Assembly: GCA_041660605.1 (NCBI GenBank)
Contig: JBAZWB010000001.1
Location: 750,503-814,502 of the forward strand
Direction of reading: 5' to 3'
Length of the DNA: 64,000 nucleotides
Source: Patescibacteria group bacterium
Lineage (GTDB): Bacteria > Patescibacteriota > Patescibacteriia > UBA10025 > JAHIVO01
Of the stretch, positions 27,299-51,409 are shown piece after piece. How positions within the stretch are numbered: the first letter of the stretch is position 1; each line of letters begins with the position of its first letter. The notes under the pieces are model-generated. The model saw only the letters and a list, made by a program, of their open reading frames with translations, was not told where the DNA came from and searched no databases. Made by a program: the position numbers and the translations under genes.

Positions 27299-27332
27299 TA
27301 CAAATGAATAATTTAAAATTAATAATGTATAA

Positions 27333-27698
27333 TTAATGTTTTGAATTTTTGATAATGGTCGTTAAAATCTTTATTATCTCTTCAGACTTGCCTTTTAATA
27401 ATTCCTGGGATTTTTTTTGAATTTTATTACTAGAAAAAATAAAAATTAGCCAATTGTCAGTTTCGATTGTGGATTTTCTTGCTGTTTGTAAGTAATTAAT
27501 AAAGTCTCTTTTGGTGACAGCGCCGGATCCCTCGGCAATATTCCCGGCTATTGAAGTAACGGATCTGACTATTTGATTAATCAATACACGATTAATTGAA
27601 TCATATTTAATCTTTTTACACAGATCAAATATCATCAGACTCAAAGTAAATGATTTTTTCCAAATATCAAGATCGCGATATCTCTTAAAATCACTCAT
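27333..27698 (-). CDS. Four-helix-bundle protein (23S rRNA intervening-sequence protein family)
   Basis: DLDIWKKS ... LINQIVRSVTSIAGNIAEGSG ... TKRDFINYLQTARKSTIETDNWL matches the family. Wedged with 27-34-nt spacers between the hypA-like gene and hydA. Confidence 0.8.
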   Translation of the reverse strand: MSDFKRYRDLDIWKKSFTLSLMIFDLCKKIKYDSINRVLINQIVRSVTSIAGNIAEGSGAVTKRDFINYLQTARKSTIETDNWLIFIFSSNKIQKKSQELLKGKSEEIIKILTTIIKNSKH

Positions 27699-27725
27699 TT
27701 TACATTATTAATTAATAATTATACA

Positions 27726-28985
27726 TTAATGTGTGGCACAGGTCATGCACGGATCATATGCCCTGATCATCATGGCTAATTTTCTCTGATTGTTTTTATT
27801 TTCAATATTCTTCAATTCTCCGATGTAAGCGCGTAAATCCTCTTCCAAATTATTTATAAACTGGGCAGTCGGCGTAATGATATTTACATTCTTCAGTATT
27901 CCGTATTTATCAGTTTCATAATAGTGCAGCAAAATACCGCGGGGTGCTTCAATCGCCCCAACCCCCTGCCCGGCCCTGACAGCATATTTAACCATTGGAC
28001 GTTCGTGCTTCATGTTTAAATATTTTTTCAGCAGTTTTTGCGCTTCTTCCATAAAATGAATCATTTCAATCCCCTGGCAATAAACATTCAAGAATGAGTT
28101 GGTCAGCGGCATATTCAATTTAATGTGCTGAAACGCTTGTTTGGCAATAGGATTTAATTGCTTCCAATTATTATTAATCCGCGATAAGGCACCGACCCAG
28201 TAAGTCTGTCCATTAAATCTCGTTCTCTTCACATAATCATCGCCTGATTGTATTTCCTCTACTTTTTTTATAAAACTTTCCGGCGTGGTTTTCAATCCTT
28301 TTGTGGAAACAACCTGCCCGTCATAAAAACCATATTCACTTTTTGAATGGAGCGCGATATATTCAGTTGAACGGCTGAACTTGGGAAATTTTAAATGCGA
28401 AAAAAAGTGAGCTAGCTCCACCGCTGATTGTAGTACCTCGGTACTGTCATCCAGTAATTTTTTTAGCTCATGTTTGTCTGGAAGTTTCAGAAATCCGCCG
28501 ACTTGCGAATTAACCGGATGCAAAGCTCGGCCGCCGATTATTTTCGTGAACCGATTTCCAAACTCTCTGATTTTTAGGGCAATTACAGATTGTTTTGGCG
28601 CTAACTTTAATAAATCCAGAGCTGAATCCCTGCCATAAAAATCCGGTATGCTCATAAAATATGCGTGCACTCCGTGCGAAGTCAGCATCTGCCCGATCAT
28701 CATCAGCTTGCGCAATATCGTAGTGCCAGAGTCAACCTTAACCTTCATGGCTTTTTCCAAGGCCTGTATGGCTGTTAAATTATGGACTATCGGGCAAACT
28801 CCGCAGATCCTGGAAGTGACAAGCGGCGCGTCCATATAATTCCGGCCGACTAAAATGCCTTCCATCAGACGCGCGCCTTCCAGCGTGTGATAGCGCGCTT
28901 CAGCCATTTTACCGGTTTTCAGCGCTCCCCAGAATGTTGCGTGGCCTTCTATTCTTGTAACGTGTTTTATGATTACGGTTTTCAT
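27726..28985 (-). CDS. [NiFe] hydrogenase large (catalytic alpha) subunit, group 3b-like
   Basis: N-terminal RIEGHATF and RICGVCPIVH (L1 motif). C-terminal DPCMTCATH (DPCxxCxxH) at the extreme C-terminus. Confidence 0.85.
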   Translation of the reverse strand: MKTVIIKHVTRIEGHATFWGALKTGKMAEARYHTLEGARLMEGILVGRNYMDAPLVTSRICGVCPIVHNLTAIQALEKAMKVKVDSGTTILRKLMMIGQMLTSHGVHAYFMSIPDFYGRDSALDLLKLAPKQSVIALKIREFGNRFTKIIGGRALHPVNSQVGGFLKLPDKHELKKLLDDSTEVLQSAVELAHFFSHLKFPKFSRSTEYIALHSKSEYGFYDGQVVSTKGLKTTPESFIKKVEEIQSGDDYVKRTRFNGQTYWVGALSRINNNWKQLNPIAKQAFQHIKLNMPLTNSFLNVYCQGIEMIHFMEEAQKLLKKYLNMKHERPMVKYAVRAGQGVGAIEAPRGILLHYYETDKYGILKNVNIITPTAQFINNLEEDLRAYIGELKNIENKNNQRKLAMMIRAYDPCMTCATH

Positions 28986-29953
28986 AATGCTTTAATTTTA
29001 TCAATAATTTTCTCGTCAATTTCTAACCACCCGCGTTTTCTATTACGCTGTTCTGTTTTATAAGCACGCTCACCAGGTATGAAAATTTCCCGCCTGCCTT
29101 TGAGTTTTTTGGCTGATTTAATATCCCCAATTAATTTTTTTACATCCCGATTAAATGCTTTTCTAGAAGAAAATATGGCAGGATTTATGACTATAAAGAG
29201 AAAACCACGTAATTTTTTCGTACTCTTGCCTACTTGAGTTCGTACTAATGGACCGGTTAATATTTCAATCGCCGCGGCTAAAATATACCCTTTATAACCC
29301 CCAAAAGGCAATAAAGCGACTAATTTATTTGGATCAGTCGTTGGTTGGCCGTGACTGTCAATTCCCCAGTCTTTATCAATTTTCTTACCAAAGGCGCGAG
29401 CCAGGCGTACATGCCAAAATGCACGTACCGAGGTTGCCATATCAACAACGAATGGAAAAGGTTTATAGGGGATTCCAATACCAATCGGATTAGTTGAAAG
29501 TATCGGCTCACACGCACCCGTTGGAGCTATTAATGGCCCACCACCATAATTAAAACACAAAGCGATCATGCCTTTTTGTGCTGCTTTTTCAGCCCAGGTA
29601 GCCGGACGTTGAAATGCGAATATGTTGCCACCACCAACTACATATACTCCAGATTGTTTAACTTTCTTAATCGCATGGTTAATGGCAAAATCAGCTACCA
29701 ACTGGCCGTAATCACAATTACCATCAAGGTAGGTGTAGGCTGGCTTGTCGACTGCTACTTTAAAATGGCCGCGCTTGATGGTTTTTCCTTTATTATAAGC
29801 ATCAGTAAACCCATAAATCCCGTGCGATTGTTTTCCTTTTAATTCACCGCGCATAAATTCATCAGCTACAATTCGTGCTTCCGGCGTTGTCAATGCGATT
29901 TTTTTCAGTTTATCTTCTAATAATTTTCTTAATATATTAATCTTTATTTTCAT
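28982..29953 (-). CDS. Ldh_2-family (malate/L-lactate/sulfolactate dehydrogenase family 2) oxidoreductase
   Basis: EARIVADEFMRGELKGKQSHGI N-terminal motif typical of Ldh_2. Inserted between hydrogenase small and large subunit genes. Confidence 0.65.
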   Translation of the reverse strand: MKIKINILRKLLEDKLKKIALTTPEARIVADEFMRGELKGKQSHGIYGFTDAYNKGKTIKRGHFKVAVDKPAYTYLDGNCDYGQLVADFAINHAIKKVKQSGVYVVGGGNIFAFQRPATWAEKAAQKGMIALCFNYGGGPLIAPTGACEPILSTNPIGIGIPYKPFPFVVDMATSVRAFWHVRLARAFGKKIDKDWGIDSHGQPTTDPNKLVALLPFGGYKGYILAAAIEILTGPLVRTQVGKSTKKLRGFLFIVINPAIFSSRKAFNRDVKKLIGDIKSAKKLKGRREIFIPGERAYKTEQRNRKRGWLEIDEKIIDKIKAL

Positions 29954-29992
29954 AAAATTACCTGTTAAGCATTACTAATTGCGAAATTTAAA

Positions 29993-30787
29993 TTACTTTT
30001 TGTTTTGCGTATCCAATTCCCATTCTTCCTGAATGCCAAAAATCTGCATAATATGCTCCAGCTGCTTCTGGCTGATTAATTTCAATAATTTTTTCTCCAA
30101 CTGCTTAGTGGAATAGCCGGGAATAACGCCCCGGCAGCCTTTGCAGAAAAATTTCGAATTCAGGCAAACGGCGTTGCATCCGCCGCGTATGACCGGGCCC
30201 AGGCACGGCTCGCCCTTCTGTAAAACACATTCATTGCCGTTTAGCTGACATTCGTAGCAAACGGGATTTTCCATAAGTTTCGGAGCAATCCTCTGCCGGA
30301 TCATGTTCAAAGCCATGATTAAATCGCGACCATCAGGCGGACAGCCGGGGATAATGAAATCAACTGGTACAAATCTGCTGATCGGTAAAATATTAGGATT
30401 GAAAACCTTGTTATACGTTTTGGGGTACTGGTATTTAACGGCTTTTTTCTTATCGATGTAATTTTTAATGTTGGGAATCACGCCAAAATGCGCACAGGCG
30501 CCGATGCCGATTAAGTACTTTGCACGTTTACGGATCTCCTTAAGCGCTTGAATATTTTTTTTAGTCAAAGGTGCTCCTTCAATTATTGCCACATCATAAA
30601 AAGCCTTCTTGTCTTTTTCGTCCATAATAATGAAAAAATCACCCAACTCAAAATGGTCAATGGAAGCGATAAATTCCAGGCCCATATCCAGGATGGAAAC
30701 CGAGCAACCGTCGCAGGAAGTTAAACCGACGATGGCTACTTTTAGCTTTCTATCATTTTTATTATTATAATGTTTTTTTCTTGACAT
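29993..30787 (-). CDS. [NiFe] hydrogenase small (delta) subunit, group 3b-like
   Basis: VAIVGLTSCDGCSVSILD proximal cluster Cys motif plus distal Cys cluster CNAVCLNSKFFCKGC. Confidence 0.8.
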   Translation of the reverse strand: MSRKKHYNNKNDRKLKVAIVGLTSCDGCSVSILDMGLEFIASIDHFELGDFFIIMDEKDKKAFYDVAIIEGAPLTKKNIQALKEIRKRAKYLIGIGACAHFGVIPNIKNYIDKKKAVKYQYPKTYNKVFNPNILPISRFVPVDFIIPGCPPDGRDLIMALNMIRQRIAPKLMENPVCYECQLNGNECVLQKGEPCLGPVIRGGCNAVCLNSKFFCKGCRGVIPGYSTKQLEKKLLKLISQKQLEHIMQIFGIQEEWELDTQNKK

Positions 30788-31119: not shown

Positions 31120-31212
31120 ATTTTAATGCATAATGCATAATTTAAAATTAATAATTATACATTTTAAATTATCACCCTTCGGGTGATCCGCCTTTGGCGG
31201 ATAAATTATTAA

Positions 31213-32025: not shown

Positions 32026-32033
32026 TTTGTCAT

Positions 32034-32088: not shown

Positions 32089-32092
32089 TATT

Positions 32093-40470: not shown

Positions 40471-41037
40471 TTAAATTAATCTAAAAGATTCCACCACTTC
40501 ATCGAAAACTTCATTATGAGAGTAATTTGTTTCTTCAGTTATTATGTAAATCTTTTTATTTTTTGAAACTACTATGGTTCTTTGATTAGTCGAATTACTA
40601 ATAAACTTTTCTGCTGTTTGCCCGGAAACTGTCTCACTGGACACTTTATAAGCCGAGAAATCATTTTTATCCAATAGTTCAATCAAAAGTACAATTGACT
40701 CATCTTTCTTCTGAAGCAGATAATTTTCTATTTCCAAATTATTATCATTAGAATAAACCGAAATGGTAACCTCTTCGCCCTCATTTGGCTGCTCGTACAC
40801 CGTTAAATTAATTGAGTTACCCTGTGGCAGATTATCAGTTTCCGTGTTTATTTGATAATCAGATGGATAAGAAAAACTGAAATAGTTTTCCGTATTGGAA
40901 TACGTTTTTAATTCAGTGTTATTGATACTTATTTGTTCTATTTTTGTTCCTGCCCCTCCTCTTAGCACTAAAAATCCAACTATAATTAAACCAGCAACGC
41001 AAATAATTATTGAAGTGATTATTAAATTTTTTTTCAT
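40471..41037 (-). CDS. Hypothetical N-terminally membrane-anchored extracytoplasmic protein
   Basis: Signal-anchor MKKNLIITSIIICVAGLIIVGFLVL. C-terminal ...EVVESFRLI resembles the next gene's ...EVISSFKLI. Confidence 0.45.
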   Translation of the reverse strand: MKKNLIITSIIICVAGLIIVGFLVLRGGAGTKIEQISINNTELKTYSNTENYFSFSYPSDYQINTETDNLPQGNSINLTVYEQPNEGEEVTISVYSNDNNLEIENYLLQKKDESIVLLIELLDKNDFSAYKVSSETVSGQTAEKFISNSTNQRTIVVSKNKKIYIITEETNYSHNEVFDEVVESFRLI

Positions 41038-41684
41038 ATATCAATTAATTTAAAACTAGAAATAACTTCTTCTGCCAACGGATTTGAATCTGTGTTTTCA
41101 TATACTATGCCAATGTGATAAAGCCAACCTTTGTTAATAAAATAATATTCTGTGGCATAATCTTTAACACCGCCGGTAAAATCAACCCTATCAGCTTCAA
41201 TACCGTCAGCCAATCTTTCTTTCCTGAATGTCCACTCCCCCTCGCCATACTGCTGGTTTAAATAGTCAGTAAGTGTTTCGTTACTAAATAAGCTACGAGT
41301 AAACTGAACCGCCGTTCCAGTTAAGCTCACCAGATTTTCATCCTCCGGACCTTTGCCCGAGCTTCTATAAAGCGGCTTGTCCGAACTTTCAACGCTGATC
41401 ATATTTCCGCTGTAAATTACCTGTTGTACGCCATTGACCACGACATTATCAACCGTGGTTCTCACATGCCACTCTTTTGGCATTTCGAAAGAAATCTGCA
41501 AATTGGGGTCTGTATAGAGATCACGGTCGGCACTTACTATCACTCGAGTAGCGTTATTTGAGGCAGAATTCGTCTGTAGATTGGTGTTGGTTTCGCCCGA
41601 GTTATTATTCGAAATAAAAAAATAAACACTTACTAATATTATTGCCACAATTATAACGCAAATTAAAATGTTTTTTTTAGTCAT
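41034..41684 (-). CDS. Hypothetical N-terminally membrane-anchored extracytoplasmic protein (paralogous C-terminus to 40471..41037)
   Basis: Start set at MTKKNILICVIIVAIILV. Overlaps the neighbouring genes by 4-8 nt (operon). Confidence 0.45.
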   Translation of the reverse strand: MTKKNILICVIIVAIILVSVYFFISNNNSGETNTNLQTNSASNNATRVIVSADRDLYTDPNLQISFEMPKEWHVRTTVDNVVVNGVQQVIYSGNMISVESSDKPLYRSSGKGPEDENLVSLTGTAVQFTRSLFSNETLTDYLNQQYGEGEWTFRKERLADGIEADRVDFTGGVKDYATEYYFINKGWLYHIGIVYENTDSNPLAEEVISSFKLIDI

Positions 41685-42903
41685 ATTGCAGCGAACTAAT
41701 AATATTTTCAAATTGTTTAACGCTTTCCGCCTCCTCATTAAATATCTGAAATTTTCCCGATTCAATTTGTCGGACAAAATAATCAAACTCACTTTCCTTT
41801 ACATTAATTACATTATTGTCCGTAGGGACATAGCCAAATATCGCTTTTTTAGAATTATCATCTTTGTTCCGAATAAAAACCTCACGCACTATAGTACCTG
41901 AATTTTCAATACCATAATCATATATAAATTCATAAAATGAAAATCCCTCGTAACCGTCAGGTACCTGCATAAATGGCTTACAAGCTGCGTACTTAAATGA
42001 AGGCAGATTAACCAACAAACTACAAAAATCTCCCGAATTGGATTGAAAGGGTTCCTGTCCAAGGAATGATAAAAAGCGTTCCGTGCCGCACAAAACGTCC
42101 TGCATTCCGTAACTAACCCATAAACCAACCCCCGTTTGCGTTTGAAAATATGATACCCGGCAAGACAAATCCACAGAATGTACGCTTTTATCATTTAGAG
42201 AATCAATATCCGCTTGAGTGAATTTAATAAAATCTACGGGTATTTCAATTTTTAGCAAAGAATATGGAAAACTTAATGTTCCCGTTTGTCCATTTAGGCT
42301 GTATCTGTAATAACCAAGTTCCGGGCGTGTATCCGGCCCTCGCGAAGTATCAAATAACAATTCTTTGCCTCCAGACGTTAAATATAATATATTACCTTCA
42401 ACTTTAGTGATTTCCACATCCGTACCAATCAAATTATCCGGATCTTCATACGAAATTGATGTTGCTGCTAACGGATCAAACGCGGTGATGTCTATATAAT
42501 GGAAACTATAATGATTTTCTTCGCGAATCTCCGAAATAAACCATAATCTTGTTTTGTTACTATTCCAAATAAAATTTCTATATTGAAAGTTAAAATCATA
42601 GGTACCATTAACCATTTCTGACAAATTATCCTGTCGATCATACATTGTTAAAATCTGCTTTCCATCGGATTTAATGGTATGCTCTAGATAATAGTTAGAA
42701 TCAGAAAACGCATACACCTGTGTATTGTTGGTCAGTTGATTAATATTATCTAATGAAGAATTGCTCATCTTATTACTTACATTATTAGTATAATCCTTAT
42801 TGATGCTGTCCTTATTTGTATCAACTATGAGTATAATTGCAAGAACAGCTACAATAAAAATAGCTATTAATATTAATCCTACTTTTTTATTTATTGATTT
42901 CAT
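41677..42903 (-). CDS. Hypothetical large membrane-anchored extracytoplasmic protein (408 aa)
   Basis: Signal-anchor MKSINKKVGLILIAIFIVAVLAIILIV. No family recognised. Confidence 0.45.
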   Translation of the reverse strand: MKSINKKVGLILIAIFIVAVLAIILIVDTNKDSINKDYTNNVSNKMSNSSLDNINQLTNNTQVYAFSDSNYYLEHTIKSDGKQILTMYDRQDNLSEMVNGTYDFNFQYRNFIWNSNKTRLWFISEIREENHYSFHYIDITAFDPLAATSISYEDPDNLIGTDVEITKVEGNILYLTSGGKELLFDTSRGPDTRPELGYYRYSLNGQTGTLSFPYSLLKIEIPVDFIKFTQADIDSLNDKSVHSVDLSCRVSYFQTQTGVGLWVSYGMQDVLCGTERFLSFLGQEPFQSNSGDFCSLLVNLPSFKYAACKPFMQVPDGYEGFSFYEFIYDYGIENSGTIVREVFIRNKDDNSKKAIFGYVPTDNNVINVKESEFDYFVRQIESGKFQIFNEEAESVKQFENIISSLQYD

Positions 42904-42998
42904 GCGAATTAAAATAAATAATTAGATAAAGATGATTTTAGAATGCGTGGTGGAAAAGGAGTGTTTCCCTCTTCCACCACACTTATGTGGGTAAATGG

Positions 42999-43673
42999 CT
43001 AATATTGCCACCAGTAGAAATCAATTTGGCAGGCATAATACTCTGAATCACACAGCGTCGGAATAACGGGATGTCCGTTGTTGTCATTGATGTTCTCGTA
43101 TCCAACAATATGCAGATGTGTTCCAATAGAATTTCCGGAATTTCCAGTTCTGCCGAGAAAAAAATGAGCCGGAATATTTTTTCCCACATAAACTCGCGAG
43201 TAGATGTAGGATAAATGCGCATAGCGTATGGCAACATGGCGAATTGGGTCATACACTACAACGGTATACCCATAGCCATTTTGCCACCCTGCGTAGATTA
43301 TTCTGCCTCCAAACCCGGCAAAAATCTGTATGCCATAATCTAAACCGTTAATTTGGTTTAAATCACGCGCATAATATTCCGCGCCCGAATGAGTGCTTAG
43401 CCGGCCATTGCAAAATGGTGCACCGATTGTAGAACCTGGGGTATTTGGTCCATCCCAACCAATCCAATCACCTTTCAGCTGTAATGATCCAAATGGCCAA
43501 GCCACAATCATTTTAGCCCCACGTTTTGATAACACTTCCACTGCCCCCACATCAACATCATTGAATTCAGCTTCCTTGGGCTGGGGATTACTGGCTTTGT
43601 CGGCTAGCTTCGAACAACCGACAACGAAAGCTAGGATTAGCGCCAATATCGTAATTAATCTGTGGTTCTTCAT
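42999..43673 (-). CDS. Lipoprotein with M23-family (LytM-like) metallopeptidase domain
   Basis: Lipobox LAFVVGC. M23 motifs ...HSGAEYYARD... and GRTGNSGNSIGTHLHIVG. GC-richer than neighbours. Confidence 0.6.
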   Translation of the reverse strand: MKNHRLITILALILAFVVGCSKLADKASNPQPKEAEFNDVDVGAVEVLSKRGAKMIVAWPFGSLQLKGDWIGWDGPNTPGSTIGAPFCNGRLSTHSGAEYYARDLNQINGLDYGIQIFAGFGGRIIYAGWQNGYGYTVVVYDPIRHVAIRYAHLSYIYSRVYVGKNIPAHFFLGRTGNSGNSIGTHLHIVGYENINDNNGHPVIPTLCDSEYYACQIDFYWWQY

Positions 43674-43855
43674 TTTCTCTTTGTTCCTTTCCTGAAAGGT
43701 AGTTTTGATTTCAAGTTGCGGTTTTTTAGGCTTTCAGAAAATACCCACGTGTTTTCCGAAAGCTGGTTGCTATTTGCCTCCCATGGTTATTGCCATAGAC
43801 ATGCTCCTTTGTTTACAATGAACGGTTTTTTAGGTTAATTAAAAACTATTTTATA

Positions 43856-44137
43856 TTAAACAAAAATTATTATTAATAATGACAGGACCACAAATAAAAG
43901 CCAATTAGCCAAAGCTCCTTGCGCATAGAACTTATAACTCTTGTTAGACAGCCCGAAAAAAGCTACAAAAAATAATACCCCACTTAAAATATAAGTTACA
44001 ATTGCTGGGAGGTCGATCTGTGATTTTGAAAATATGATTTTGAATAAATCTAAGGAAGAAAGCGCCGCAGCATACAGAAAAAAACCGACAATGCGTTCTT
44101 TTAAAAATATTTTTTTAAATTCAGTTTCCATATACAT
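43856..44137 (-). CDS. Small hypothetical membrane protein
   Basis: 93-aa ORF with two hydrophobic helices. Confidence 0.3.
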   Translation of the reverse strand: MYMETEFKKIFLKERIVGFFLYAAALSSLDLFKIIFSKSQIDLPAIVTYILSGVLFFVAFFGLSNKSYKFYAQGALANWLLFVVLSLLIIIFV

Positions 44138-44199
44138 AATATTACTAATTAATAATGTTGAGGGAAGAATTAGTTGTCTTCTTCCCTCTTCTCGGACCG

Positions 44200-44736
44200 C
44201 TAGCCCGTTATCCAGATGCCACCTGCCCAGGTGTGATTAATACAGAAACGACTGTAATGATAGTAATAGTACTGTGCCCAGAGATAGATCGGATATGCGT
44301 ATCCACTGCGAGACATGAGGTCAAGCATATAGACTGCTGATAGTTCAGAATAGCATTCCTTGTACCCCCACCAGTACCAATAAAACTCGATCTTTGCGAT
44401 CGCCGGAGACTCGTTCATCTCCTGAATCTTCTGATTAGCAATCGGAATTCCTTTCTGCAGATTGAGCACAGTTTCCAGATCAGAACCGGCAATCGAGCTG
44501 TGCGCGGCCTTGAATCCCGCTTCGTCAAAGACATACTGTCCGTCTTTGGTTTGGGTAACGTACGGATCCATAGCCGCAATCATCTGCTCATACTGAGCGG
44601 CCTTGGCCTGTTCTTTGGCAAACGGCTGTTCCGGTTCGCTGGCAACCGGGGCTTTCACTCCCGAACAGCCAGGCAGCAGGAACATGATGGCCAATGGAAA
44701 CGCCAACAATCGGTAAAGAAGTTTATGCTTCATCAT
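44200..44736 (-). CDS. Hypothetical lipoprotein, aromatic-rich C-terminus, GC-richer
   Basis: Start set to MMKHKLLYRLLAFPLAIMFLLPGCSG (lipobox LLPGC). Confidence 0.5.
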   Translation of the reverse strand: MMKHKLLYRLLAFPLAIMFLLPGCSGVKAPVASEPEQPFAKEQAKAAQYEQMIAAMDPYVTQTKDGQYVFDEAGFKAAHSSIAGSDLETVLNLQKGIPIANQKIQEMNESPAIAKIEFYWYWWGYKECYSELSAVYMLDLMSRSGYAYPIYLWAQYYYYHYSRFCINHTWAGGIWITG

Positions 44737-44939
44737 ATAGAGAAGCCTTTCAAAAACAGAATTTCCGTGAGTGCTTGATTGGCAAATAACAATCGTAAGA
44801 AGAGACCCACGTTTTCTCCCTACTAAAATCAATTAACTGTAACCTCTCTTTCTACCTGCGAAATGGCAAGTGGTTGGTATGGTTTAGGCTATCAATGAGC
44901 GATTATTTATGTTGGAAAAGGCTCTTATGCACATGTTTT

Positions 44940-44969
44940 GACGACGGCGAATGTCCGCGACGGCGCAAT
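44940..44969. repeat. Left GC-rich inverted repeat GACGACGGCGAATGTCCGCGACGGCGCAAT bounding the 7TM-GAF block
   Basis: Matches the reverse complement of 52881-52912 (GCGACGGCGCAAT-5nt-GCGACGGCGC) at about 85% identity. GC-rich 13-mer in an AT-rich spacer. Confidence 0.6.
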
Positions 44970-45128
44970 CAGATATAAATTTATTTACGAATAATCATTG
45001 ATATTGCTTATCATAATTTTTCATAAAAAATAACAGAGCGCCGTCAATCTTTTGCCCTGTTAATGTTCGTTTCTATCTTAATTATATCATTTTTCAATCA
45101 AACATTCAGCATCTAATAATAAAATTAA

Positions 45129-46580
45129 TTATTTTATTTTCCCAATCCTCTCAACTGCCTGTTTATAAAGCAACGCATTCGCAATCGCACCCGTCATCTG
45201 CGGCTGGAGACGATTTAAGTACTGAATATTATCAGAAGTAAAAGCTTCGTTATTATCTTTATTACCAAACAATAATAACCCTATTAATTCCCCTTTCTCC
45301 CCAATTGGCAGCATTAACCCCACTTTTAGATATTTCATCTCTTCATAAATATCTTTTAGTATTTGTGTTTCTCCGTTTTCTTCTTCTTCTATTATGTAAG
45401 GTATTTCTTCAATAATTAGGATTTTCGGATAATTGCGTAAATACTGAAATAATGGACTGCTTGGTGTAAATGTTATTTTCTTATCATCTGGGTAATAATT
45501 TTCCAGCTGGCCAGTTTTTTTGTTTTGCCAAATGAATTGAATTGTATTTACATTAAGATAATTGATTAATTCTATTGTTATTCTCTTTAGTAGCTGATCA
45601 AATTGCAGCGAAGAAGACATTATAGTTCTCAATTGGCGAGCTTTTTCTAATTGATTATTGTGCTTGGAATAGAATACATTATCAATTATTTTCACTAATA
45701 ACCTACGTAAAGGCTCGACAGTAAAGGCAATGATAACAATTAATACAATTGTAGTAGTTTGTTCTGACCAACTATATTGTTTCTCAAAATAACTCTTGGA
45801 AATAATAAGTAAATAAATGTAGAAAAAAAGAATAATTGCTAATGATAAAAAATGTATAAAACCTTTTTTTATAACAACTCTAATATCCATAAACCTATAA
45901 CGTATTATCGTGTATGTCATTAAAATTGCGATGACTATCGTTACAAGTGGCCCATAGGGGGATATTATGGCTTTATCAGATTCGATACCATGTGTAAACA
46001 ATATCGGATAAATTAAGTTTGTAAATAATCCGAAAATTGTAGCTATAATAAATGAAAATATAAGATACTTCGTTTTGATTTTTTCAATACCTGTTGATAT
46101 TGATTTTTGCTTGAATAATAAATAAAACCCTATAATAAAATAAGTGATAAGATAAAACCCATACATCTTATATAAAGAACCATAAACAATATCATTTATA
46201 GGCACTCCTAGTCTTATAATAACGTCTTTTGCTACTAGGTCAGTTAGGCTGATTATTGAGAAAAAAAATGAAACTAAAAATATTAGAACCTTGATACTTT
46301 TTTTAATTTTTAAAGTGTTTGGAAAATTTATCACTAAATTTACAAAGAAAAAAACTATTAATACAGGAAAGAAAAACAAAATTTTTAAATTAAAAGCTGC
46401 TATACTATATTGCTTTATTACACCATCTAACCAATTAAAGAGTATCCATCCGGAAGTTGCAATCATCAGTAGAAAAAAGTAAACATTCGGTTTTTTATTT
46501 TTCCCTTTCCACCATACAAAAAAGCCTAACGACAAATTAGCCACTACCACGAAAATTGAAATAATATCCAGTATTGTCAT
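45129..46580 (-). CDS. 7TM-GAF sensor-module protein lacking kinase transmitter domains (paralogue C)
   Basis: N-terminal 7TM like the histidine kinase at 35983..38856. Ends right after the GAF-like domain (...QPQMTGAIANALLYKQAVERIGKIK*). Start trimmed to MTILDIISIF. Confidence 0.7.
   Translation of the reverse strand: MTILDIISIFVVVANLSLGFFVWWKGKNKKPNVYFFLLMIATSGWILFNWLDGVIKQYSIAAFNLKILFFFPVLIVFFFVNLVINFPNTLKIKKSIKVLIFLVSFFFSIISLTDLVAKDVIIRLGVPINDIVYGSLYKMYGFYLITYFIIGFYLLFKQKSISTGIEKIKTKYLIFSFIIATIFGLFTNLIYPILFTHGIESDKAIISPYGPLVTIVIAILMTYTIIRYRFMDIRVVIKKGFIHFLSLAIILFFYIYLLIISKSYFEKQYSWSEQTTTIVLIVIIAFTVEPLRRLLVKIIDNVFYSKHNNQLEKARQLRTIMSSSLQFDQLLKRITIELINYLNVNTIQFIWQNKKTGQLENYYPDDKKITFTPSSPLFQYLRNYPKILIIEEIPYIIEEEENGETQILKDIYEEMKYLKVGLMLPIGEKGELIGLLLFGNKDNNEAFTSDNIQYLNRLQPQMTGAIANALLYKQAVERIGKIK
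45139..45209. repeat. 71-bp near-identical DNA repeat (copy 1) at the 3' end of paralogue C
   Basis: 70/71 identical to 46604-46674, while flanking coding DNA of the two paralogues is much more diverged. Confidence 0.8.
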
Positions 46581-46590
46581 ATACCTATAA

Positions 46591-48006
46591 TTATTTATTA
46601 AAATTCCCAATCCTCTCAACTGCTTGTTTATAAAGCAACGCATTCGCAATCGCACCCGTCATCTGCGGCTGGAGTCGCTGTAAATATTGTATCGCATCAA
46701 CTGTATAAGCGTCTTTTTTGTTTTTCGGACCAAAAAGGAAGACGCCTACTAACTCCCCTCTCTCGCCAATCGGTAAAACCAAACTAACTGCTAACTGTTT
46801 TAGTTTTTCTTCAATATTTTTTAACTTACCAACTTCGCCATTTTTACTCTCTTCCATTAAATATGGAATTTCCTCAGTAATTAATATGTTTGGATTATCC
46901 TGCAAATAGCTGAATAATACGTCCGTTGATTTTATACTGACTGTTGTATTTTCTGTATTATCATTTTTTAAGTCTCCGGTTTGTCTATCTAATTCTAAAA
47001 AATAAATTTTATTAATTTGCAAAAAATCCTTTAAGCTTCCAGTTGCTCTATTTATCAGATGATCAAAATGCATTGAAGAAGACAGAATGAGTTTTAATTT
47101 TCTCGCTTCTTCATCCACATTTCTTTGCTTGGAATAAAACACTTTATCAATAACTTTCACCAATAACCTACGTAAAGGTTCAATAGTTAGTGCAATGATT
47201 ATCACCAACACAATTGTCGTTGTCTGTTCTGACCAGTAAAACGTTTTTTCAAAATAGCTTTTAGAAAAAATCAGTAAGTATATGTAAATAAATAAAATAA
47301 TTGCTAATGTTAGAAAGTTTACCAGACCTTTCCTAACGATAAACTTAATATCCATAAATCTATATTTGAAAATAGAATATGAAATCAAAGTTACAAATAT
47401 AATTGAAACCATAGCATCAAGTCTTGCAAAATATAATCGTTCAAAATAGGGAAAAATAAAATTAAAAATTAATACAATTAAAATAGGAATAATAAAACCA
47501 ATTATTACATAAATATTTTGTAATTTCTTAATTCCCATTGATTTTTTATATCCTGCCAACAATATTATGATCGAAATCAATAAAATCAATCCAATCGGAA
47601 TTGTGAAAGCAGTAAAATATTTTCCTAAATTCGCATCAAATCCAAAGGGTGTTTGTATCATTTCAGTACTTAATATAAAATTGGGAATTAGAGTTAGTAA
47701 AGCAACTAGTATACACACCAATACTCCAAAAATCTTCCAAAACTTTTTAATATTAACCTTACTATAGTAAATAACCCATAAAAATATACCTGCTGCTAAT
47801 AACACACCAGACATATAGGTTAATGTTTCAAAAAAATATTTTGGAATAAATAAAAATAGTACATTACTAATAACCCATATTGTTGCAAGAAAAATAAAAT
47901 AAGAAAAGGTTTTTTGAACTTTATTTTTTGATTTTATAAATACCGATATTCCCAATGCTAGATTAAGAATTGTTGCTGCGATCATTAAAATTTTAGAAAT
48001 CAACAT
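46591..48006 (-). CDS. 7TM-GAF sensor-module protein lacking kinase transmitter domains (paralogue B)
   Basis: Same architecture. Tandem with paralogue C. Confidence 0.7.
   Translation of the reverse strand: MLISKILMIAATILNLALGISVFIKSKNKVQKTFSYFIFLATIWVISNVLFLFIPKYFFETLTYMSGVLLAAGIFLWVIYYSKVNIKKFWKIFGVLVCILVALLTLIPNFILSTEMIQTPFGFDANLGKYFTAFTIPIGLILLISIIILLAGYKKSMGIKKLQNIYVIIGFIIPILIVLIFNFIFPYFERLYFARLDAMVSIIFVTLISYSIFKYRFMDIKFIVRKGLVNFLTLAIILFIYIYLLIFSKSYFEKTFYWSEQTTTIVLVIIIALTIEPLRRLLVKVIDKVFYSKQRNVDEEARKLKLILSSSMHFDHLINRATGSLKDFLQINKIYFLELDRQTGDLKNDNTENTTVSIKSTDVLFSYLQDNPNILITEEIPYLMEESKNGEVGKLKNIEEKLKQLAVSLVLPIGERGELVGVFLFGPKNKKDAYTVDAIQYLQRLQPQMTGAIANALLYKQAVERIGNFNK
46604..46674. repeat. 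71-bp near-identical DNA repeat (copy 2) at the 3' end of paralogue B
   Basis: See copy 1 (45139..45209). Confidence 0.8.
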
Positions 48007-48149
48007 ACTTATTTATCCTTAAAATTATTATCTTCACCCATAATCTTTTCAATAACATCCCTCAAAAAATCTGCCTGGTTTTGTGTTTTCTACTTAAATT
48101 CATACGCATAAATTAAATTGTTATAAAGGTAAATTCATAAGTTACGCTT

Positions 48150-48215
48150 GATATGGGAAGTGGGACGTAGAAGTGAGATGCGGGTCGGGTAATGAGAAGC
48201 TAGGAGTGAGGCAAG
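48150..48215. repeat. Left arm of ~55-bp purine-rich imperfect inverted repeat bracketing the four-helix-bundle gene 48200..48598
   Basis: ...GAAGTGAGATGCGGGTCGGGTAATGAGAAGCTAGGAGTGAGG... versus the reverse complement of 48615-48671 ...TAAGTGAGGTTAGATGTGGGTTTCGGATGTGTGAGGTGGGG... Confidence 0.6.
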
Positions 48216-48598
48216 TTACTTATCCAGTTTTTTCCAAGATTATAAAGTTGCTTGCCTGCTATATTGTACGTTTCAATTAGTTTACTGCATATTTCAGAAG
48301 AAACGTATTTACTATAAACATCTCTACATACGCTCAAATGATGAATCATCTCATTGCTCTCGCCGATTGCATCATCAATGTACTTTTTCCAACTACGTTT
48401 ATAATTTTTCTTTGCGTAACCTTCGGCCAGTTGAGCCGGTGCACTCTTACAGGCTCTTCTTAATTGATCTGCTAAATCAAATCTTTCTTCTTTTGGTAAA
48501 TTTGGCACAACTTTTGTTAAAACAATTACCATTGCTTTATATAAATTCTGGTAAACTATTAGATCAGTATAACTTTTAATTGGCATATTATTTAGCAA
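48200..48598 (-). CDS. Four-helix-bundle protein (23S rRNA IVS protein family)
   Basis: LIVYQNLYKAMVIVLTKVVPNLPKEERFDLADQLRRACKSAPAQLAEGYAK matches the family. Probable ATG start at 48586. Confidence 0.8.
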   Translation of the reverse strand: MLNNMPIKSYTDLIVYQNLYKAMVIVLTKVVPNLPKEERFDLADQLRRACKSAPAQLAEGYAKKNYKRSWKKYIDDAIGESNEMIHHLSVCRDVYSKYVSSEICSKLIETYNIAGKQLYNLGKNWISNLPHS

Positions 48599-48614
48599 TT
48601 TTTTTGTTAATTAA

Positions 48615-48671
48615 ATCCCCACCTCACACATCCGAAACCCACATCTAACCTCACTTATTCCGAAATCCCTC
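48615..48671. repeat. Right arm of inverted repeat bracketing the four-helix-bundle gene 48200..48598
   Basis: Pyrimidine-rich on plus strand (atccccacctcacacatccgaaacccacatctaacctcacttattccgaaatccctc), complementary to the left arm. Confidence 0.6.
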
Positions 48672-49241
48672 ATCTTTTTGCATAATATCCTCAATTATAT
48701 CTCTTAGAAAGTCAGCTTTAGTCTTCTTCTTACGCTTTGACATATACTGTAGATACCTTTCCATCTGGGAATTTATTCTTAAAGTGAATTTGATCGTCGG
48801 TTTTTCCTTAATTCCCTTTCCCTGGCCGACTTCGTTGATAAAATCCCCAACTACTTGCGCCAAATCGTTTTTGGAATACGACTTCATTACCATGAATTCC
48901 GGCGTGTTTTTCTTGGTTAAATACCCATGCGCCACCTTTTCCGGCGTGCCTTTTTGGTACAAATATAACAATGGTTTTTTCTGTGAAATGGCGTAGGCCA
49001 ATAAATAACCGATTTCCTGGTCTGGCTGCGAAGCTTCTACAATTAAACAATCCATTTTATCCAGTAATATTTCCCCAGCTTCAGTCATCTGTTCCAGCTC
49101 TTCCTTTTTAAAATCCGTATTATTTTCATTTGACGATGCCACCACGAAAACACCGGATTGTCTTAAAGTTTCAACAATTTTTTTGTAATTTTGATCCAGT
49201 TCGGTAGTTGAGATTAGTGGACTGAAGAAATAGGTTCTCAT
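48651..49241 (-). CDS. Nucleoside 2-deoxyribosyltransferase-like domain fused to a C-terminal ribbon-helix-helix (CopG/Arc-like) domain
   Basis: N-terminal MRTYFFSPL ... CLIVEASQPDQEIGYLLAYAISQKKPLLYLY resembles the Nuc_deoxyrib_tr fold. C-terminal KPTIKFTLRINSQMERYLQYMSKRKKKTKADFLRDIIEDIM reads as beta-strand plus two helices. Confidence 0.5.
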   Translation of the reverse strand: MRTYFFSPLISTTELDQNYKKIVETLRQSGVFVVASSNENNTDFKKEELEQMTEAGEILLDKMDCLIVEASQPDQEIGYLLAYAISQKKPLLYLYQKGTPEKVAHGYLTKKNTPEFMVMKSYSKNDLAQVVGDFINEVGQGKGIKEKPTIKFTLRINSQMERYLQYMSKRKKKTKADFLRDIIEDIMQKDEGFRNK

Positions 49242-49280
49242 AGTTTATTTAATGGTTTCGGTTGTGGCTTTAAAAGAAAT

Positions 49281-49339
49281 AAGTCTTAGGTTTAAAGTTG
49301 AAAGAAGAAAGTATGGATAAAAGATTAAGGTCTTAGGTC
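49281..49339. repeat. Left arm of inverted repeat bracketing the four-helix-bundle gene 49325..49720
   Basis: AAGTTGAAAGAAGAAAGTATGGATAAAAG versus the reverse complement of the right flank AAGTTGAAAGTTTAAGGAGGAAGGAATGGAATAAAG. Confidence 0.55.
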
Positions 49340-49720
49340 TTTTCGATTAAAATTCTTCCAGGCGAGGCTTAATTTATACAATTGTTTATTAATTAAATCA
49401 TAATTCTTTAATAAACGTTCACATATTTTTTTATCAATATTACCCCCATATATGTCCATGCAATAACTTATATGTACTATGGTCTCATTGCATTCACCCA
49501 TTGCATCATCAAGGTATTTTTTGAAACTCTTTGGCATATGTTTCTTGGCAAACCCTTCCGCAATTAAAGGCGCAATCGCTTTTGCGGATCTTCCTAATTG
49601 ATCAACTAGGCCATACCGCTCTGAAGCAGGTAATTTAACTACAACATCTTTCATAACCACGACAGCGGAACTATAGGCATTTTGGTAAACATATAAATCT
49701 TTAAAACTTTGAATTGCCAT
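49325..49720 (-). CDS. Four-helix-bundle protein (23S rRNA IVS protein family)
   Basis: FKDLYVYQNAYSSAVVVMKDVVVKLPASERYGLVDQLGRSAKAIAPLIAEGFAK matches the family. Confidence 0.8.
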   Translation of the reverse strand: MAIQSFKDLYVYQNAYSSAVVVMKDVVVKLPASERYGLVDQLGRSAKAIAPLIAEGFAKKHMPKSFKKYLDDAMGECNETIVHISYCMDIYGGNIDKKICERLLKNYDLINKQLYKLSLAWKNFNRKDLRP

Positions 49721-49736
49721 ATTCTTAAAACTTTAA

Positions 49737-49783
49737 ACTTTATTCCATTCCTTCCTCCTTAAACTTTCAACTTATGACCTATA
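49737..49783. repeat. Right arm of inverted repeat bracketing the four-helix-bundle gene 49325..49720
   Basis: See left arm (49281..49339). Confidence 0.55.
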
Positions 49784-49804
49784 TCAATTTAAAATATTTA
49801 TTAA

Positions 49805-50806
49805 TCAATCCCCCAAACCATCCTCCCACATTAAAATTCTGATCTTACCAAGGTCCCTCGTCTGCCCCAAAACCCACATGAACTTAGCAAAAGCCGTTTC
49901 AAAAGTCATATTATTTACCAGAATGTACTCGCGTTTTTTCTTTTTAATATCCAGGGCAAAAGGATTGTGAGCCACCACGGGTATTTTCTTCTCATAAGCT
50001 TTTTCTAGAACCGGTTTGTATGAATCAGGAAATAAATTTGTATTGAAGCTTTTTACCATTATCCCCTGACAACCACCGTTGAGCATATTATCCAAAAGCT
50101 CCGGTCCTGCGCCGGGGTACAGTTGCATCAGGCAAACCTGCGGTTCAATTTTATCGTTCAATTTAATTTTACTATTTGATCTTTGCCTTACTTTATTAAA
50201 AAGCTTAATGCCGAAATCCACCTTGCCCAACATACCATCTTTATAAGCGTCAAAAAAATTAAATGACGGCGTGTCGCTTTTGGCAACCTGTGTTGCCCTG
50301 ATTAACCGATTGCCGAACATTATCGCCACCTCTCCCAGATCCATAGTAGCCACCTGTATGGCATTAATTAAGTTGGCTTTTACTCCCAATGATTTATAAC
50401 CGGAAATCAGGCCGGATAAATCCTGCTTGTCTGATTCCGTCACTTCTGCTGACAATGGTGAACCGGTGAAAACAACGGGCTTGCCTAGGTTCTGCAGCAT
50501 AAACGACATCATGCTGGCAGTATATATCATGGTGTCCACGCCGTGGGTAATGACAAAACCGTCGCATTTGTCATATAGCTTTGCGATTTCCCGGGCCAAT
50601 CTGCCCCACAGCTCCGGTTTGATTTCCGACGCGTCTTCGCCAAACACAAAAACCGGTTCAATGTCCGCTATCAAGCTAATTTCCGGCACCGCTTCAAGCC
50701 ACGGCTTTATGTCAGCCGATTTTTGCACGGATAATACCTTGTCATCAGCGATTAACGCCGATCCTCCGCAGAACAACAAGGCTATTTTTTGGTTTGATTT
50801 AGGCAT
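49805..50806 (-). CDS. L-asparaginase-family protein with both catalytic threonines substituted (probably non-canonical or inactive)
   Basis: Asparaginase fold motifs, but TGGTIAG is replaced by CGGSALIA and hGTDTm by HGVDTM. Start trimmed to MPKSNQKIALLFCGG (ATG 50806). Confidence 0.65.
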   Translation of the reverse strand: MPKSNQKIALLFCGGSALIADDKVLSVQKSADIKPWLEAVPEISLIADIEPVFVFGEDASEIKPELWGRLAREIAKLYDKCDGFVITHGVDTMIYTASMMSFMLQNLGKPVVFTGSPLSAEVTESDKQDLSGLISGYKSLGVKANLINAIQVATMDLGEVAIMFGNRLIRATQVAKSDTPSFNFFDAYKDGMLGKVDFGIKLFNKVRQRSNSKIKLNDKIEPQVCLMQLYPGAGPELLDNMLNGGCQGIMVKSFNTNLFPDSYKPVLEKAYEKKIPVVAHNPFALDIKKKKREYILVNNMTFETAFAKFMWVLGQTRDLGKIRILMWEDGLGD

Positions 50807-50834
50807 AACTCTTATATTTCTGATACACACGTCG

Positions 50835-50923
50835 TAAAGATTCTTCGCTTCGCTCTGAATGACAGTGTAAACGATCGTCATTCAGAGGACCCTGAACGAA
50901 GTGAAGGGGACGAAGAATCTTTA
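50835..50923. other. ~90-nt long stem-loop: 13-bp and 11-bp perfect stems (TAAAGATTCTTCG...CTCTGAATGAC / GTCATTCAGAG...CGAAGAATCTTTA) immediately 5' of the asparaginase-family gene
   Basis: Inverted repeats read directly from sequence. No T-run on either side. Confidence 0.65.
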
Positions 50924-50943
50924 TGCAGTTATTTTCGTAATTT

Positions 50944-50998
50944 CTAATTATGAATTTCTAATTTCTAATAAAATCCCAATTCATTAATTATTTAATGT
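50944..50998. repeat. Left arm of AT-rich inverted repeat (ATTAGAAATT-type) bracketing the four-helix-bundle gene 50999..51370
   Basis: Reverse complement ...TTATTAGAAATTAGAAATTCATAATTAGAAATT... versus right flank 51371-51409 ...TGATTAGAAATTAAGAATTAGTAATTAGCAAT... Confidence 0.45.
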
Positions 50999-51370
50999 CT
51001 AACTGTTTCTATTAGTAGAATTAACAATAGCGTTAAAAATTAAATTTAGTTCTTTTGCTTCCTGGTAAATAATATTTACTTTTTCTTCTTGGATAGGGTC
51101 GGCCGTAGCAATCATTTTCAACCAATGTTTTGTCTCCCTGGCTTCTTTTTTACAGATGCCAATTTTGTGCTTAAAGTCTTTCCTGGACTCAGCATCATCC
51201 GCTTCACAATAATTCGAACCAACGCTGGTTGCTGATCTAACTAATTGAGATATTAATGGTCTGGTTACTACACTCTCCGGTATTTGCTTAGCGAACCTAA
51301 TTGCATCAATGCCAAATTTTCTTGTCCTCTCCTCCAAATCGTACTTTTTTGTCATTACTTCATTAGTCAT
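50999..51370 (-). CDS. Four-helix-bundle protein (23S rRNA IVS protein family)
   Basis: ISQLVRSATSVGSNYCEADDAESRKDFKHKIGICKKEARETKHWL matches the family. Confidence 0.75.
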   Translation of the reverse strand: MTNEVMTKKYDLEERTRKFGIDAIRFAKQIPESVVTRPLISQLVRSATSVGSNYCEADDAESRKDFKHKIGICKKEARETKHWLKMIATADPIQEEKVNIIYQEAKELNLIFNAIVNSTNRNS

Positions 51371-51409
51371 TGGAGCTTGATTAGAAATTAAGAATTAGTA
51401 ATTAGCAAT

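Follow-up and report, generated by a model that had tools for sequence, protein, structure and literature searches.

Four-helix-bundle protein genes in the operons of a Patescibacteria bacterium are the probable cargo of IVS-type cassettes bracketed by long inverted repeats

Introduction

In 1993, Ralph and McClelland reportedly raised the possibility that the intervening sequence (IVS) of bacterial rRNA is a mobile element. In the Coxiella IVS, an open reading frame (ORF) lies in the loop of a stem on which RNase III sites have been mapped, and tandem GACAGAT heptamers precede the ORF (PMC4990558). ORFs of the PF05635 family have also been reported within 16S and 23S insertions of candidate-phyla-radiation (CPR) bacteria (PMC11270868). 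This family has been described by the motif G-x2-R-x3-S-x3-N-x2-E (Lin et al. 2006; Zhang and Ye, PMC3936711), and PF05635 genes located between cas genes, such as cmr3 and cmr2, have been read as a functional link (PMC3936711). Another relevant protein is Avd, an accessory protein of diversity-generating retroelements (DGRs), whose pentamer binds an 11-bp RNA stem-loop via flipped-out bases on an RNA in which sequences upstream and downstream of the template pair with each other (bioRxiv 10.1101/2023.10.23.563531). Here, we analyzed four genes for four-helix-bundle (4HB) proteins of the PF05635 family in 64,000 nucleotides of a CPR bacterium (Patescibacteria group bacterium, GenBank assembly GCA_041660605.1, contig JBAZWB010000001.1, positions 750,503 to 814,502), the whole of which we refer to as the window. 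On our best explanation, each of these genes is likely to be the cargo of a discrete selfish IVS-type cassette of ~0.5 kb that resides in an mRNA operon. The protein family, its multicopy distribution, and the rRNA IVS are already known; in the open-access literature, we found no description of a bracketed 4HB cassette outside rRNA, of arms built from repeats or their core, or of polymorphism at the sites.

Results

Four 4HB genes in the window are enclosed by long predicted stems

Confirming the first-pass annotation that four 4HB genes of one family are present, all four ORFs, designated A to D (Table 1), matched both PF05635 over its full length (66 to 91 bits; cutoff, 33.8) and TIGR02436 (59 to 95 bits; cutoff, 24) in profile hidden Markov model (HMM) searches. 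An HMM made from the four proteins detected zero further copies in all frames of the window. The proteins are 121 to 131 amino acids long and are all encoded on the - strand. Their mutual amino acid identity is just 16 to 46% (46% for B and C), so they are not recent duplicates of one another, and recent paralogous duplication inside the window is ruled out. For copy B, the ATG at 48586 (128 amino acids) is most likely the start codon rather than the TTG at 48598. The complete R-x3-S-x3-N-x2-E motif is present in A (RSVTSIAGNIAE) and D (RSATSVGSNYCE), and B and C retain its R and E with varied residues at the S and N positions, leaving R and E invariant in a four-way alignment. A profile match to XCC0516 (PDB 2GSC; E = 1.4e-7), which was deposited with five chains, links the window proteins to a predicted homopentameric 4HB assembly. 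Only B scored with the Avd model NF033474 (19.5; cutoff, 80), and PHROGs gave nothing but a weak Avd match, again for B. No PADLOC defense system model matched any of the four proteins. Comparison of the C-type ORF with relatives indicated purifying selection (pN of 0.13 to 0.22, pS of 0.67 to 0.92, and dN/dS of at most ~0.15), with synonymous sites being saturated in this comparison.

We folded each cassette with its flanks as RNA of the transcribed (-) strand, as the first-pass annotation had proposed, and obtained minimum-free-energy (MFE) structures with a long-range closing stem of 29 to 57 bp in four of four cases. When flank-flank duplex energies were compared with those of dinucleotide-preserving shuffles (n = 300), z ranged from -2.9 to -4.7 over the four copies, and only 0 to 2 of the 300 shuffles paired equally well. 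The stem limits in Table 1 are those of the MFE folds; RNAduplex tends to extend pairing toward the edge of the supplied flank and is therefore unreliable for outer limits. When 62 crude gene calls of the window were ranked by flank-flank pairing energy, B, C, and A came first to third, and D came 14th only because its arms are ~90% A+T. The inverted repeats previously described at B, C, and D were recovered within ~15 nt of their earlier coordinates, and the arms differ in sequence from copy to copy, as had also been claimed. The "short AT-rich flanks" ascribed to the hydrogenase copy, A, proved not to be the whole story, since A has a full 29-bp stem.

Each gene was also confirmed to be wedged between unrelated genes, all of them co-directional with it. 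Cassette A is flanked by the genes for a NiFe hydrogenase large subunit (27726-28985) and HypA (27041-27298), and its stem extends at the base into the final codons of the large-subunit gene and the hypA start codon. Cassettes D, C, and B are interleaved with genes for seven-transmembrane (7TM; HisKA_7TM-like) proteins, an asparaginase, and a conserved 196-amino-acid (196-aa) protein. The 5' end of D is at the stop codon of a 481-aa 7TM gene (51410-52855), C sits between the asparaginase gene (49805-50881) and the 196-aa gene (48651-49241), and the 5' end of B is at the stop or last codons of the 196-aa gene. A promoter and terminator scan from 46.5 to 53 kb revealed no enrichment and no intrinsic terminator in the - strand spacers. 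In the 64-kb window, Rfam found no rRNA and only RNase P RNA, and a search for an RNase III signature found nothing; no long direct repeats were present near the cassettes.

Occupancy of the same sites varies among relatives

We traced homologues of protein C with 61 to 80% identity to their contigs, which are given below as numbered loci (L). The asparagine synthesis/196-aa/7TM neighborhood is kept in relatives (the 196-aa protein is 68 to 76% identical and the asparaginase is ~67% identical), and yet cassette occupancy varies within it. Between the asparaginase and 196-aa genes, there is a C-type cassette in the window, L092, and L093, a different 4HB gene 47% identical to C in L006, a D/A-like 4HB gene in L002, a truncated 4HB gene in L096, and no cassette in L009. 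Between the 196-aa and 7TM genes, there is a B-type cassette in the window, a C-type cassette in L006, an internally deleted cassette in L092 that retains the two arms and stubs of the ORF, and an ORF-less 214-nt hairpin (dG of -64 kcal/mol) together with a C-type gene in L009; in L002, this site is empty, with a 4-nt gap. One site carries three different 4HB lineages across relatives. Three further contexts hold C-type genes: a 7TM gene and an autoinducer-synthase-like gene flank the one in L002, a 7TM gene and a DUF2238 gene flank that in L096, and the L097 copy lies upstream of a methyltransferase gene. A metagenome scan for the hydrogenase large-subunit gene (hydL)/hypA site recovered three orthologous loci with identical gene ends (...DPCMTCATH before the stop codon and MHDLIAAQDI...). 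Relative to the intact A cassette of the window, L098 has a 290-nt frame-broken A-type remnant with its arms kept, and the site is empty in L099 and L100, which have unrelated spacers of 60 and 104 nt, respectively.

Past cassette B, the final ~14 codons of the 196-aa gene are present again as a relic (Table 1) that stops 2 nt ahead of the start of the next gene. The same relic was significant at the nucleotide level in L006 (z = 5.7) and L092 (z = 4.5). Because 8 to 15 codons of the end of the upstream gene recur past the cassette, these data point to insertion into the 3' end of a gene with a long target duplication, which at this site is ~25 to 45 nt.

The arms are part of the unit, and the closing helix covaries

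To delimit the unit, eight C-type cassettes were aligned with 130 nt of flank on each side, with the aberrant L009 copy included. Homology reaches ~50 to 55 nt 5' of the ATG and ~60 to 65 nt 3' of the stop codon whatever genes flank the cassette, and the arms are alignable across at least five different intergenic contexts. From this alignment, RNAalifold independently recovered the closing helix with 28 pairs, in which 81% of the helix cells are paired with L009 counted. Compensatory changes occur in 13 of the 28 pairs, and the covariation score of 0.298 exceeds those of column shuffles (0.164; 0 of 500 as high) and of slid partners (0.065 to 0.154). Between conserved G-C pairs, the arms vary by flips between A-U and U-A. 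Other comparisons likewise showed arms accompanying the gene. Arms are nearly identical between the decayed cassette of L092 and the intact one of L096, which occupy different sites. Arms homologous to those of window D flank its D-type orthologue in L093 (75% identity), and the arms of A are conserved in L098. L043, a Patescibacteria single-cell genome, contains two cassette copies 1.4 kb apart whose shared homology abruptly begins at TGGTTACGGTTAGG and abruptly ends ~500 bp away at CCTAACCGA. The 3' halves of these copies are 100% identical, which indicates recent gene conversion.

The first-pass annotation had proposed IVS-like, possibly mobile cassettes and had suggested comparing the sites in relatives, where we found intact, decayed, and empty versions. 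The patterns that it had named beforehand as refuting, arms without the gene or the reverse in a distribution inconsistent with insertion, or no stem, were not found. The site polymorphism, the arms travelling with the gene, and the sharp-ended copies in L043 support the proposed cassette or mobile nature, and the IVS-like architecture is supported by an ORF in the loop, a covarying stem, and the same anatomy in an Azospirillum IVS described below.

The arms are built from short tandem repeats and contain a conserved core

All eight window arms have an autocorrelation peak at lag 7 (0.40 to 0.54 versus a background of ~0.28), and flanks at 77 loci peak at lags 6 to 7 and 12 to 14, unlike controls. 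We therefore consider the arms to be tandem 6- to 7-nt repeats. The 5' arm is G-rich and C-poor (31% G and 10% C), and the 3' arm is the opposite. In a cross-phylum set of 91 genes and 337 controls (described below), a 13-nt core, GAAGCCCGTATCG (also given as GAAGCCCGUAUCG), occurs ~35 nt upstream of the ATG in 39 genes versus 7 controls, and its partner, CGA(A/T)ACGGGC(A/T)TC, occurs 1 to 8 nt past the stop codon in 30 genes versus 6 controls. Both copies of the core are flanked by GGTTAC-type hexamers, and the left-end and right-end variants are each conserved, in inverted orientation. When paired, the core contains two recurrent A.A mismatches in about half of the cases. Rfam searches of 12 cassette loci at permissive thresholds placed no family on the arms.

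Bracketed 4HB genes occur across phyla

A scan of one genome per species with a C-type profile yielded 349 relatives, of which we analyzed the best 80 (50 to 59% identical to C). By the labels of their metagenome-assembled genome (MAG) bins, these 80 belong to Patescibacteria, Omnitrophota, WOR-3, Planctomycetota, Nitrospirota, Gamma- and Deltaproteobacteria, Clostridia, Bacteroidales, and Thermoplasmata, a spread that argues for horizontal transfer. The pairing survey comprised 91 homologous genes in ~85 genomes, with ORF limits set by hmmsearch, and 337 control positions displaced by 0.8 to 1.2 kb. Flanks paired at z < -3 in 44% of genes versus 2% of controls and at z < -2 in 59% versus 7% (Mann-Whitney p = 3e-25). 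Neighboring genes were co-directional in ~87% of cases (upstream, 64 of 73; downstream, 62 of 72) at median gaps of 86 nt upstream and 60 nt downstream, and 0 of 80 surveyed loci lay inside a long noncoding, rRNA-like stretch. Among the strongly paired genes, the inner boundary of the stem fell a median of 9 nt ahead of the start codon on one side and 6 nt short of the end of the stop codon on the other; thus, the ORF essentially fills the loop. A scan of viral contigs detected no C-type relatives. A tblastn search of plasmids gave only four distant matches, one of which is a genuine 23S IVS.

This match is in a feature-less region of Azospirillum lipoferum AZO_p2 that Rfam places within a 23S rRNA gene. 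The gene is 3,199 nt long versus 2,925 nt for the model, with an insert beginning ~1,150 nt in. We take this position to be the helix-45 (h45) region. Within the insert is a sense 4HB ORF whose product matches C at 39% identity over 89 residues. ATTCAGAGGACGGATGACAGAGGAC and GTCTTCTGTCATCCGTCTTCTGAGT pair into an uninterrupted closing stem of 25 bp, and the arms are composed of GAGGACR heptamers with lag-7 autocorrelations of 0.43 and 0.40.

The stem is more stable on the sense strand

Over 76 genes, the stem of the sense strand is more stable than that of the antisense strand by a median of 4 kcal/mol (Wilcoxon p = 2e-4). Among the strongest stems, 20 of 25 favor the sense strand, with a median of 10 kcal/mol, and there are 590 G.U pairs on the sense strand compared with 394 on its complement. 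Of the window copies, B and C favor the sense strand by 11 to 13 kcal/mol (12.7 for B), and A and D are neutral.

Coordinates and surroundings of the cassettes

Table 1. Cassettes A to D and the relic of the 196-aa gene, in window positions
Feature	Position	Strand	Details
Cassette A, whole	27294..27738	-	Closing stem of 29 bp (27738-27701 with 27329-27294); duplex z = -4.7
Cassette A, 5' arm	27701..27738	-	AT-rich; lag-7 autocorrelation 0.40
Cassette A, 4HB ORF, 121 aa	27333..27698	-	PF05635 90.8 bits, TIGR02436 94.7 bits
Cassette A, 3' arm	27294..27329	-	MFE fold, lag-7 periodicity
Cassette B, whole	48137..48658	-	Closing stem of 41 bp (48658-48590 with 48264-48137); duplex z = -2.9 to -3.2
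Cassette B, 5' arm	48590..48658	-	G/U-rich; lag-7 autocorrelation 0.40
Cassette B, 4HB ORF, 128 aa from ATG at 48586	48200..48586	-	PF05635 66.3 bits
Cassette B, 3' arm	48137..48199	-	C/A-rich; MFE fold
Cassette C, whole	49268..49794	-	Closing stem of 57 bp (49794-49726 with 49335-49268); duplex z = -3.4 to -4.6
Cassette C, 5' arm	49726..49794	-	Purine-rich tandem GTTnAAR-type heptamers; Shine-Dalgarno-like AAGGAGG inside; lag-7 autocorrelation 0.54
Cassette C, 4HB ORF, 131 aa	49325..49720	-	PF05635 68.6 bits
Cassette C, 3' arm	49268..49335	-	Overlaps final codons of the ORF
Cassette D, whole	50939..51410	-	Closing stem of 45 bp (51410-51353 with 50997-50939); duplex z = -3.4 to -4.0
Cassette D, 5' arm	51353..51410	-	TAATTnn heptamers; includes the start codon; lag-7 autocorrelation 0.52
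Cassette D, 4HB ORF, 123 aa	50999..51370	-	PF05635 66.1 bits, TIGR02436 84.6 bits
Cassette D, 3' arm	50939..50997	-	ATTAGAA heptamers
Relic of last ~14 codons of 196-aa gene	48009..48053	-	IEKIMGEDNNFKDK and stop versus genuine C terminus IIEDIMQKDEGFRNK and stop

The stretch from ~38000 to 53000 of the window has a GC content of 27 to 38% compared with 40 to 47% elsewhere and carries an array of paralogous 7TM (HisKA_7TM-like) proteins that lack kinase domains, adjoined by a complete 7TM-GAF-HisKA-HATPase kinase (35983-38856). Three of the four cassettes are within this variable, low-GC array. Around cassette A, the hydrogenase operon has an unusual member, a malate/L-lactate dehydrogenase family gene (28982-29953; Ldh_2, E = 7e-82), between the hydrogenase small-subunit-like (29993-30787) and large-subunit genes. 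Genes for small GIY-YIG nucleases recur in cassette neighborhoods (L093 1779-2072, L002 8371-8679, and L008 995-1327).

We also observed other repeats and hairpins. A separate family of palindromes resembling repetitive extragenic palindromic (REP) sequences, for example, GTCATTCAGAGG...GAAGAATCTT, CTGTCATTCCGGACTTGATCCGGAATC, and GATCCTGAAACAAGTTCAGGATGACAG, is found in other spacers of the cassette-bearing loci (window 50830-50930 and 55380-55513; L009 2496-2887 and 3881-4207). One of them overlaps the start of the asparaginase gene, and in L009 they occupy sites that hold 4HB cassettes in the window. Also in L009 (4787-5612), a GU-rich heptamer arm precedes two CA-rich sequences that are alternative partners for it, the first located ahead of a 4HB ORF and the second past it, so that the region could fold as either an ORF-less hairpin or an ORF-enclosing stem; recombination may have produced this arrangement, or it may be a switch between alternative structures. 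In L006 (553-1113; also L008 2091-2651), the asparaginase/4HB cluster is immediately preceded by a Y1-transposase-like gene (weak PF01797 match). In L006, the flanks of this gene pair very strongly (z = -8.4; dG of -62 kcal/mol), a layout like that of a REP-associated tyrosine transposase (RAYT) gene, or REPtron, beside the cassettes. Finally, the RNase P RNA of the window (2964-3543, - strand; RF00010, 212.9 bits) is 580 nt long versus 367 nt for the model. Four of its helices are each lengthened by an AT-rich insert, and one and the same stem, CCCCACAC...GUGUGGGG, closes all four inserts, which resemble small stem insertions repeated within a structured RNA.

Discussion

As far as can be read from the compared sequences, our findings show a discrete unit of arms plus ORF that undergoes turnover among sites and genomes and degenerates into ORF-less hairpins, with the protein and the complementarity of the arms kept. 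The same comparisons show cassettes that appear to have spread both horizontally and within genomes and to have landed, in sense orientation, in short spacers or at the extreme 3' ends of co-directional genes. In the mechanism we propose, the arms would pair on the polycistronic transcript to form a 30- to 60-bp stem with the ORF looped out. RNase III would then cut the stem as in rRNA, detaching the cassette RNA and separating the flanking cistrons, and such cutting would make insertion into a transcript tolerable. Excisability by RNase III would therefore explain how the element, in contrast to most insertions, can live in both rRNA and tight operons. The stem, the repeats, or the core may also bind the 4HB protein of the cassette itself, a homologue of Avd and XCC0516. 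The sense-strand advantage, the sense orientation in operons, and the IVS precedent favor a structure acting on the transcript, and the sense RNA stem probably serves as a substrate of RNase III, as the site where an Avd-like 4HB pentamer binds, or as both. No recombinase is encoded within the cassettes.

Several points weigh against this interpretation. Mobility is deduced from the distribution of the cassettes, their co-transcription is presumed, and their cleavage by RNase III is proposed by analogy with IVSs. The duplicated end of the upstream gene was significant only at the 196-aa/7TM site and not at the other sites examined, and no short target site duplication was seen at the two L043 copies. 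Domain annotation of the cassette neighbors in the window identified no adjoining recombinase, transposase, or reverse transcriptase. Some of the MAG bins behind the taxon labels may be misassigned. Approximately 40% of the homologues, including those of L009 and L006_148 and archaeal loci, have no significant flank pairing. The excess of G.U pairs on the sense strand could come partly from C-to-T bias on the nontemplate strand. Covariation is not proof of an RNA stem, because a co-evolving protein that binds two inverted DNA sites would also give concerted change. Furthermore, the conserved core implies sequence-specific recognition beyond what RNase III alone accounts for; something would thus read the sequence as well as the pairing.

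Due to this readout of the core, we keep a DNA-level mechanism as a live, if unlikely, rival. In this alternative, the arms would be terminal inverted repeats (TIRs) of reiterated protein-binding sites, made of the core plus hexamer or heptamer iterons and recognized by the 4HB protein or by a recombinase or transposase supplied in trans, and the RNA stem would be a mere by-product. Inverted 13-nt cores near both ends with GGTTAC-type repeats alongside, the sharp ends of the unit in L043, left and right core variants each conserved in the manner of the left and right inverted repeats (IRL and IRR) of a transposon, and the long target duplication at one site would all fit such an element, and the layout recalls a RAYT gene between inverted REPs. 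A DNA-level element does not readily account for a sense strand that systematically pairs better and has more G.U pairs, for arms that change by A-U/U-A flips instead of holding a fixed sequence, or for the strong bias toward sense orientation within operons. There is also no transposase in or consistently next to the cassette and no short target site duplication, and the homologous IVSs of rRNA function as RNA stems (PMC4990558).

We regard it as very improbable that the stems are host regulatory hairpins, such as mRNA stabilizers, attenuators, or devices for translational coupling, that evolved in place without mobility. Regulation would lead one to expect stems that cover ribosome-binding sites or start codons, as these do for the 4HB genes and, in the case of A, also for hypA, with inner edges at a median of 9 nt from the start and 6 nt within the ORF at its 3' end. 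The comparative data nonetheless largely refute this alternative: the gene has homologous arms at different loci and across phyla, orthologous sites are empty or decayed, the two L043 copies have sharp homology ends, and one site has three different 4HB lineages in relatives. Chance pairing of low-complexity, AT-rich spacers, which the ~85 to 90% A+T of the A and D arms and the rank of D at just 14 of 62 by raw energy might suggest, is scarcely credible and was rejected, given shuffle z values of about -3 to -4.7 in all four copies, z < -3 in only 2% of displaced controls, a covarying helix, and conservation of the A arms in L098 and the D arms in L093.

Within the selfish-cassette interpretation, a further and speculative step, which we think more likely wrong than right by a wide measure, is that a ribonucleoprotein of the 4HB pentamer and its own stem is the propagating form of a previously unrecognized class of mobile element that lacks a recombinase. 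Such a ribonucleoprotein could use the A.A mismatches of the core to supply flipped-out bases, as in the Avd-RNA complex, and could borrow a reverse transcriptase or host repair in trans, for example. Both rRNA IVSs and the Avd module of DGRs would then be offshoots of this class.

Because of the shared anatomy, we propose that rRNA IVSs are the rRNA-resident instances of a much wider cassette family. This proposal recasts a 35-year-old curiosity without an agreed origin or function as part of a family that dwells mostly in ordinary operons and makes IVS biology testable in many organisms. The abundant and often multicopy "hypothetical" proteins of PF05635/TIGR02436 would gain a context as parts of a selfish unit with cis elements and a core motif. 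It also urges caution with guilt by association, as 4HB genes among cas genes (PMC3936711) or in hydrogenase operons may be hitchhiking insertions. A 30- to 60-bp stem at gene boundaries, which in A covers the hypA start codon, indicates possible posttranscriptional effects on host operons. Lastly, our interpretation suggests an origin or a destination for the DGR accessory protein Avd.

Among known systems, integron cassettes are similar in being promoterless single-ORF units that lie in sense in a transcribed array and include an imperfect palindrome. They differ in having attC at the 3' end only and in forming arrays beside an integrase and attI, whereas the window arms are on both sides of the ORF at scattered sites with no integrase seen. 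The arms that bracket the ORF and the lack of an integrase led us to reject identity with integron cassettes. Correia elements (also Neisseria miniature insertion sequences [NEMIS]) and elements of the enterobacterial repetitive intergenic consensus (ERIC) type lie between operon genes and form long transcript hairpins that are processed by double-strand-specific RNases, altering the expression of flanking genes. De Gregorio and colleagues reportedly found in 2002 to 2003 that RNase III cleaves Correia hairpins. The cassettes resemble these elements in their insertion between operon genes and in forming long hairpins on the transcript. Correia/NEMIS and ERIC elements are ORF-less, with many near-identical copies per genome, defined TIRs, and target site duplications; in contrast, each cassette carries a conserved protein gene, and copies in the same genome are highly diverged. 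The many near-identical noncoding copies of miniature inverted-repeat transposable elements (MITEs) have no counterpart in the window, where the copies are 16 to 46% identical, have different arms, and are each coding. With regard to MITE-like TIR features, inverted arms and sharp ends are present, the L043 copies have no short duplication, and one site has a long duplication (~25 to 45 nt).

In REPtrons, a RAYT (Y1 transposase) gene is flanked by inverted REP sequences. The likeness to the cassettes is that of one small gene bracketed by inverted short motifs that its product supposedly recognizes, with ORF-less hairpins also existing. The cargo of the cassettes differs, being a 4HB protein without a known catalytic motif, and their arm repeats are not, as far as we observed, dispersed genome-wide like REPINs (REP doublets forming hairpins). 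Avd is closer with respect to the protein, since it is a homologous 4HB pentamer whose RNA stem-loop target is encoded beside its own gene. However, no reverse transcriptase or template repeat/variable repeat (TR/VR) pair is near the window cassettes, and the bracket surrounds the ORF of the protein itself rather than a template repeat. With neither component present and an NF033474 score far below the cutoff, identity with a DGR was rejected.

The closest described system is the 23S rRNA IVS of Leptospira, Coxiella burnetii, Azospirillum, and other bacteria, whose ORF is of the same PF05635 family (also called S23p) and occupies, in sense orientation, the loop that a long stem of flanking inverted repeats closes. 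Tandem heptamers are present in the arms in both settings (GACAGAT in Coxiella [PMC4990558] and GAGGACR in Azospirillum), and both kinds of element are AT-biased, horizontally acquired, and ~0.45 to 0.55 kb long. Differences are that the window cassettes reside in mRNA operons between protein-coding genes of a window without rRNA, that strong purifying selection acts on the window-type ORF, in contrast to the reported decay of the Coxiella ORF, and that excision by RNase III, demonstrated for IVSs, would be expected by analogy for the operon cassettes. The window cassettes share every structural feature of ORF-bearing IVSs save residence in rRNA.

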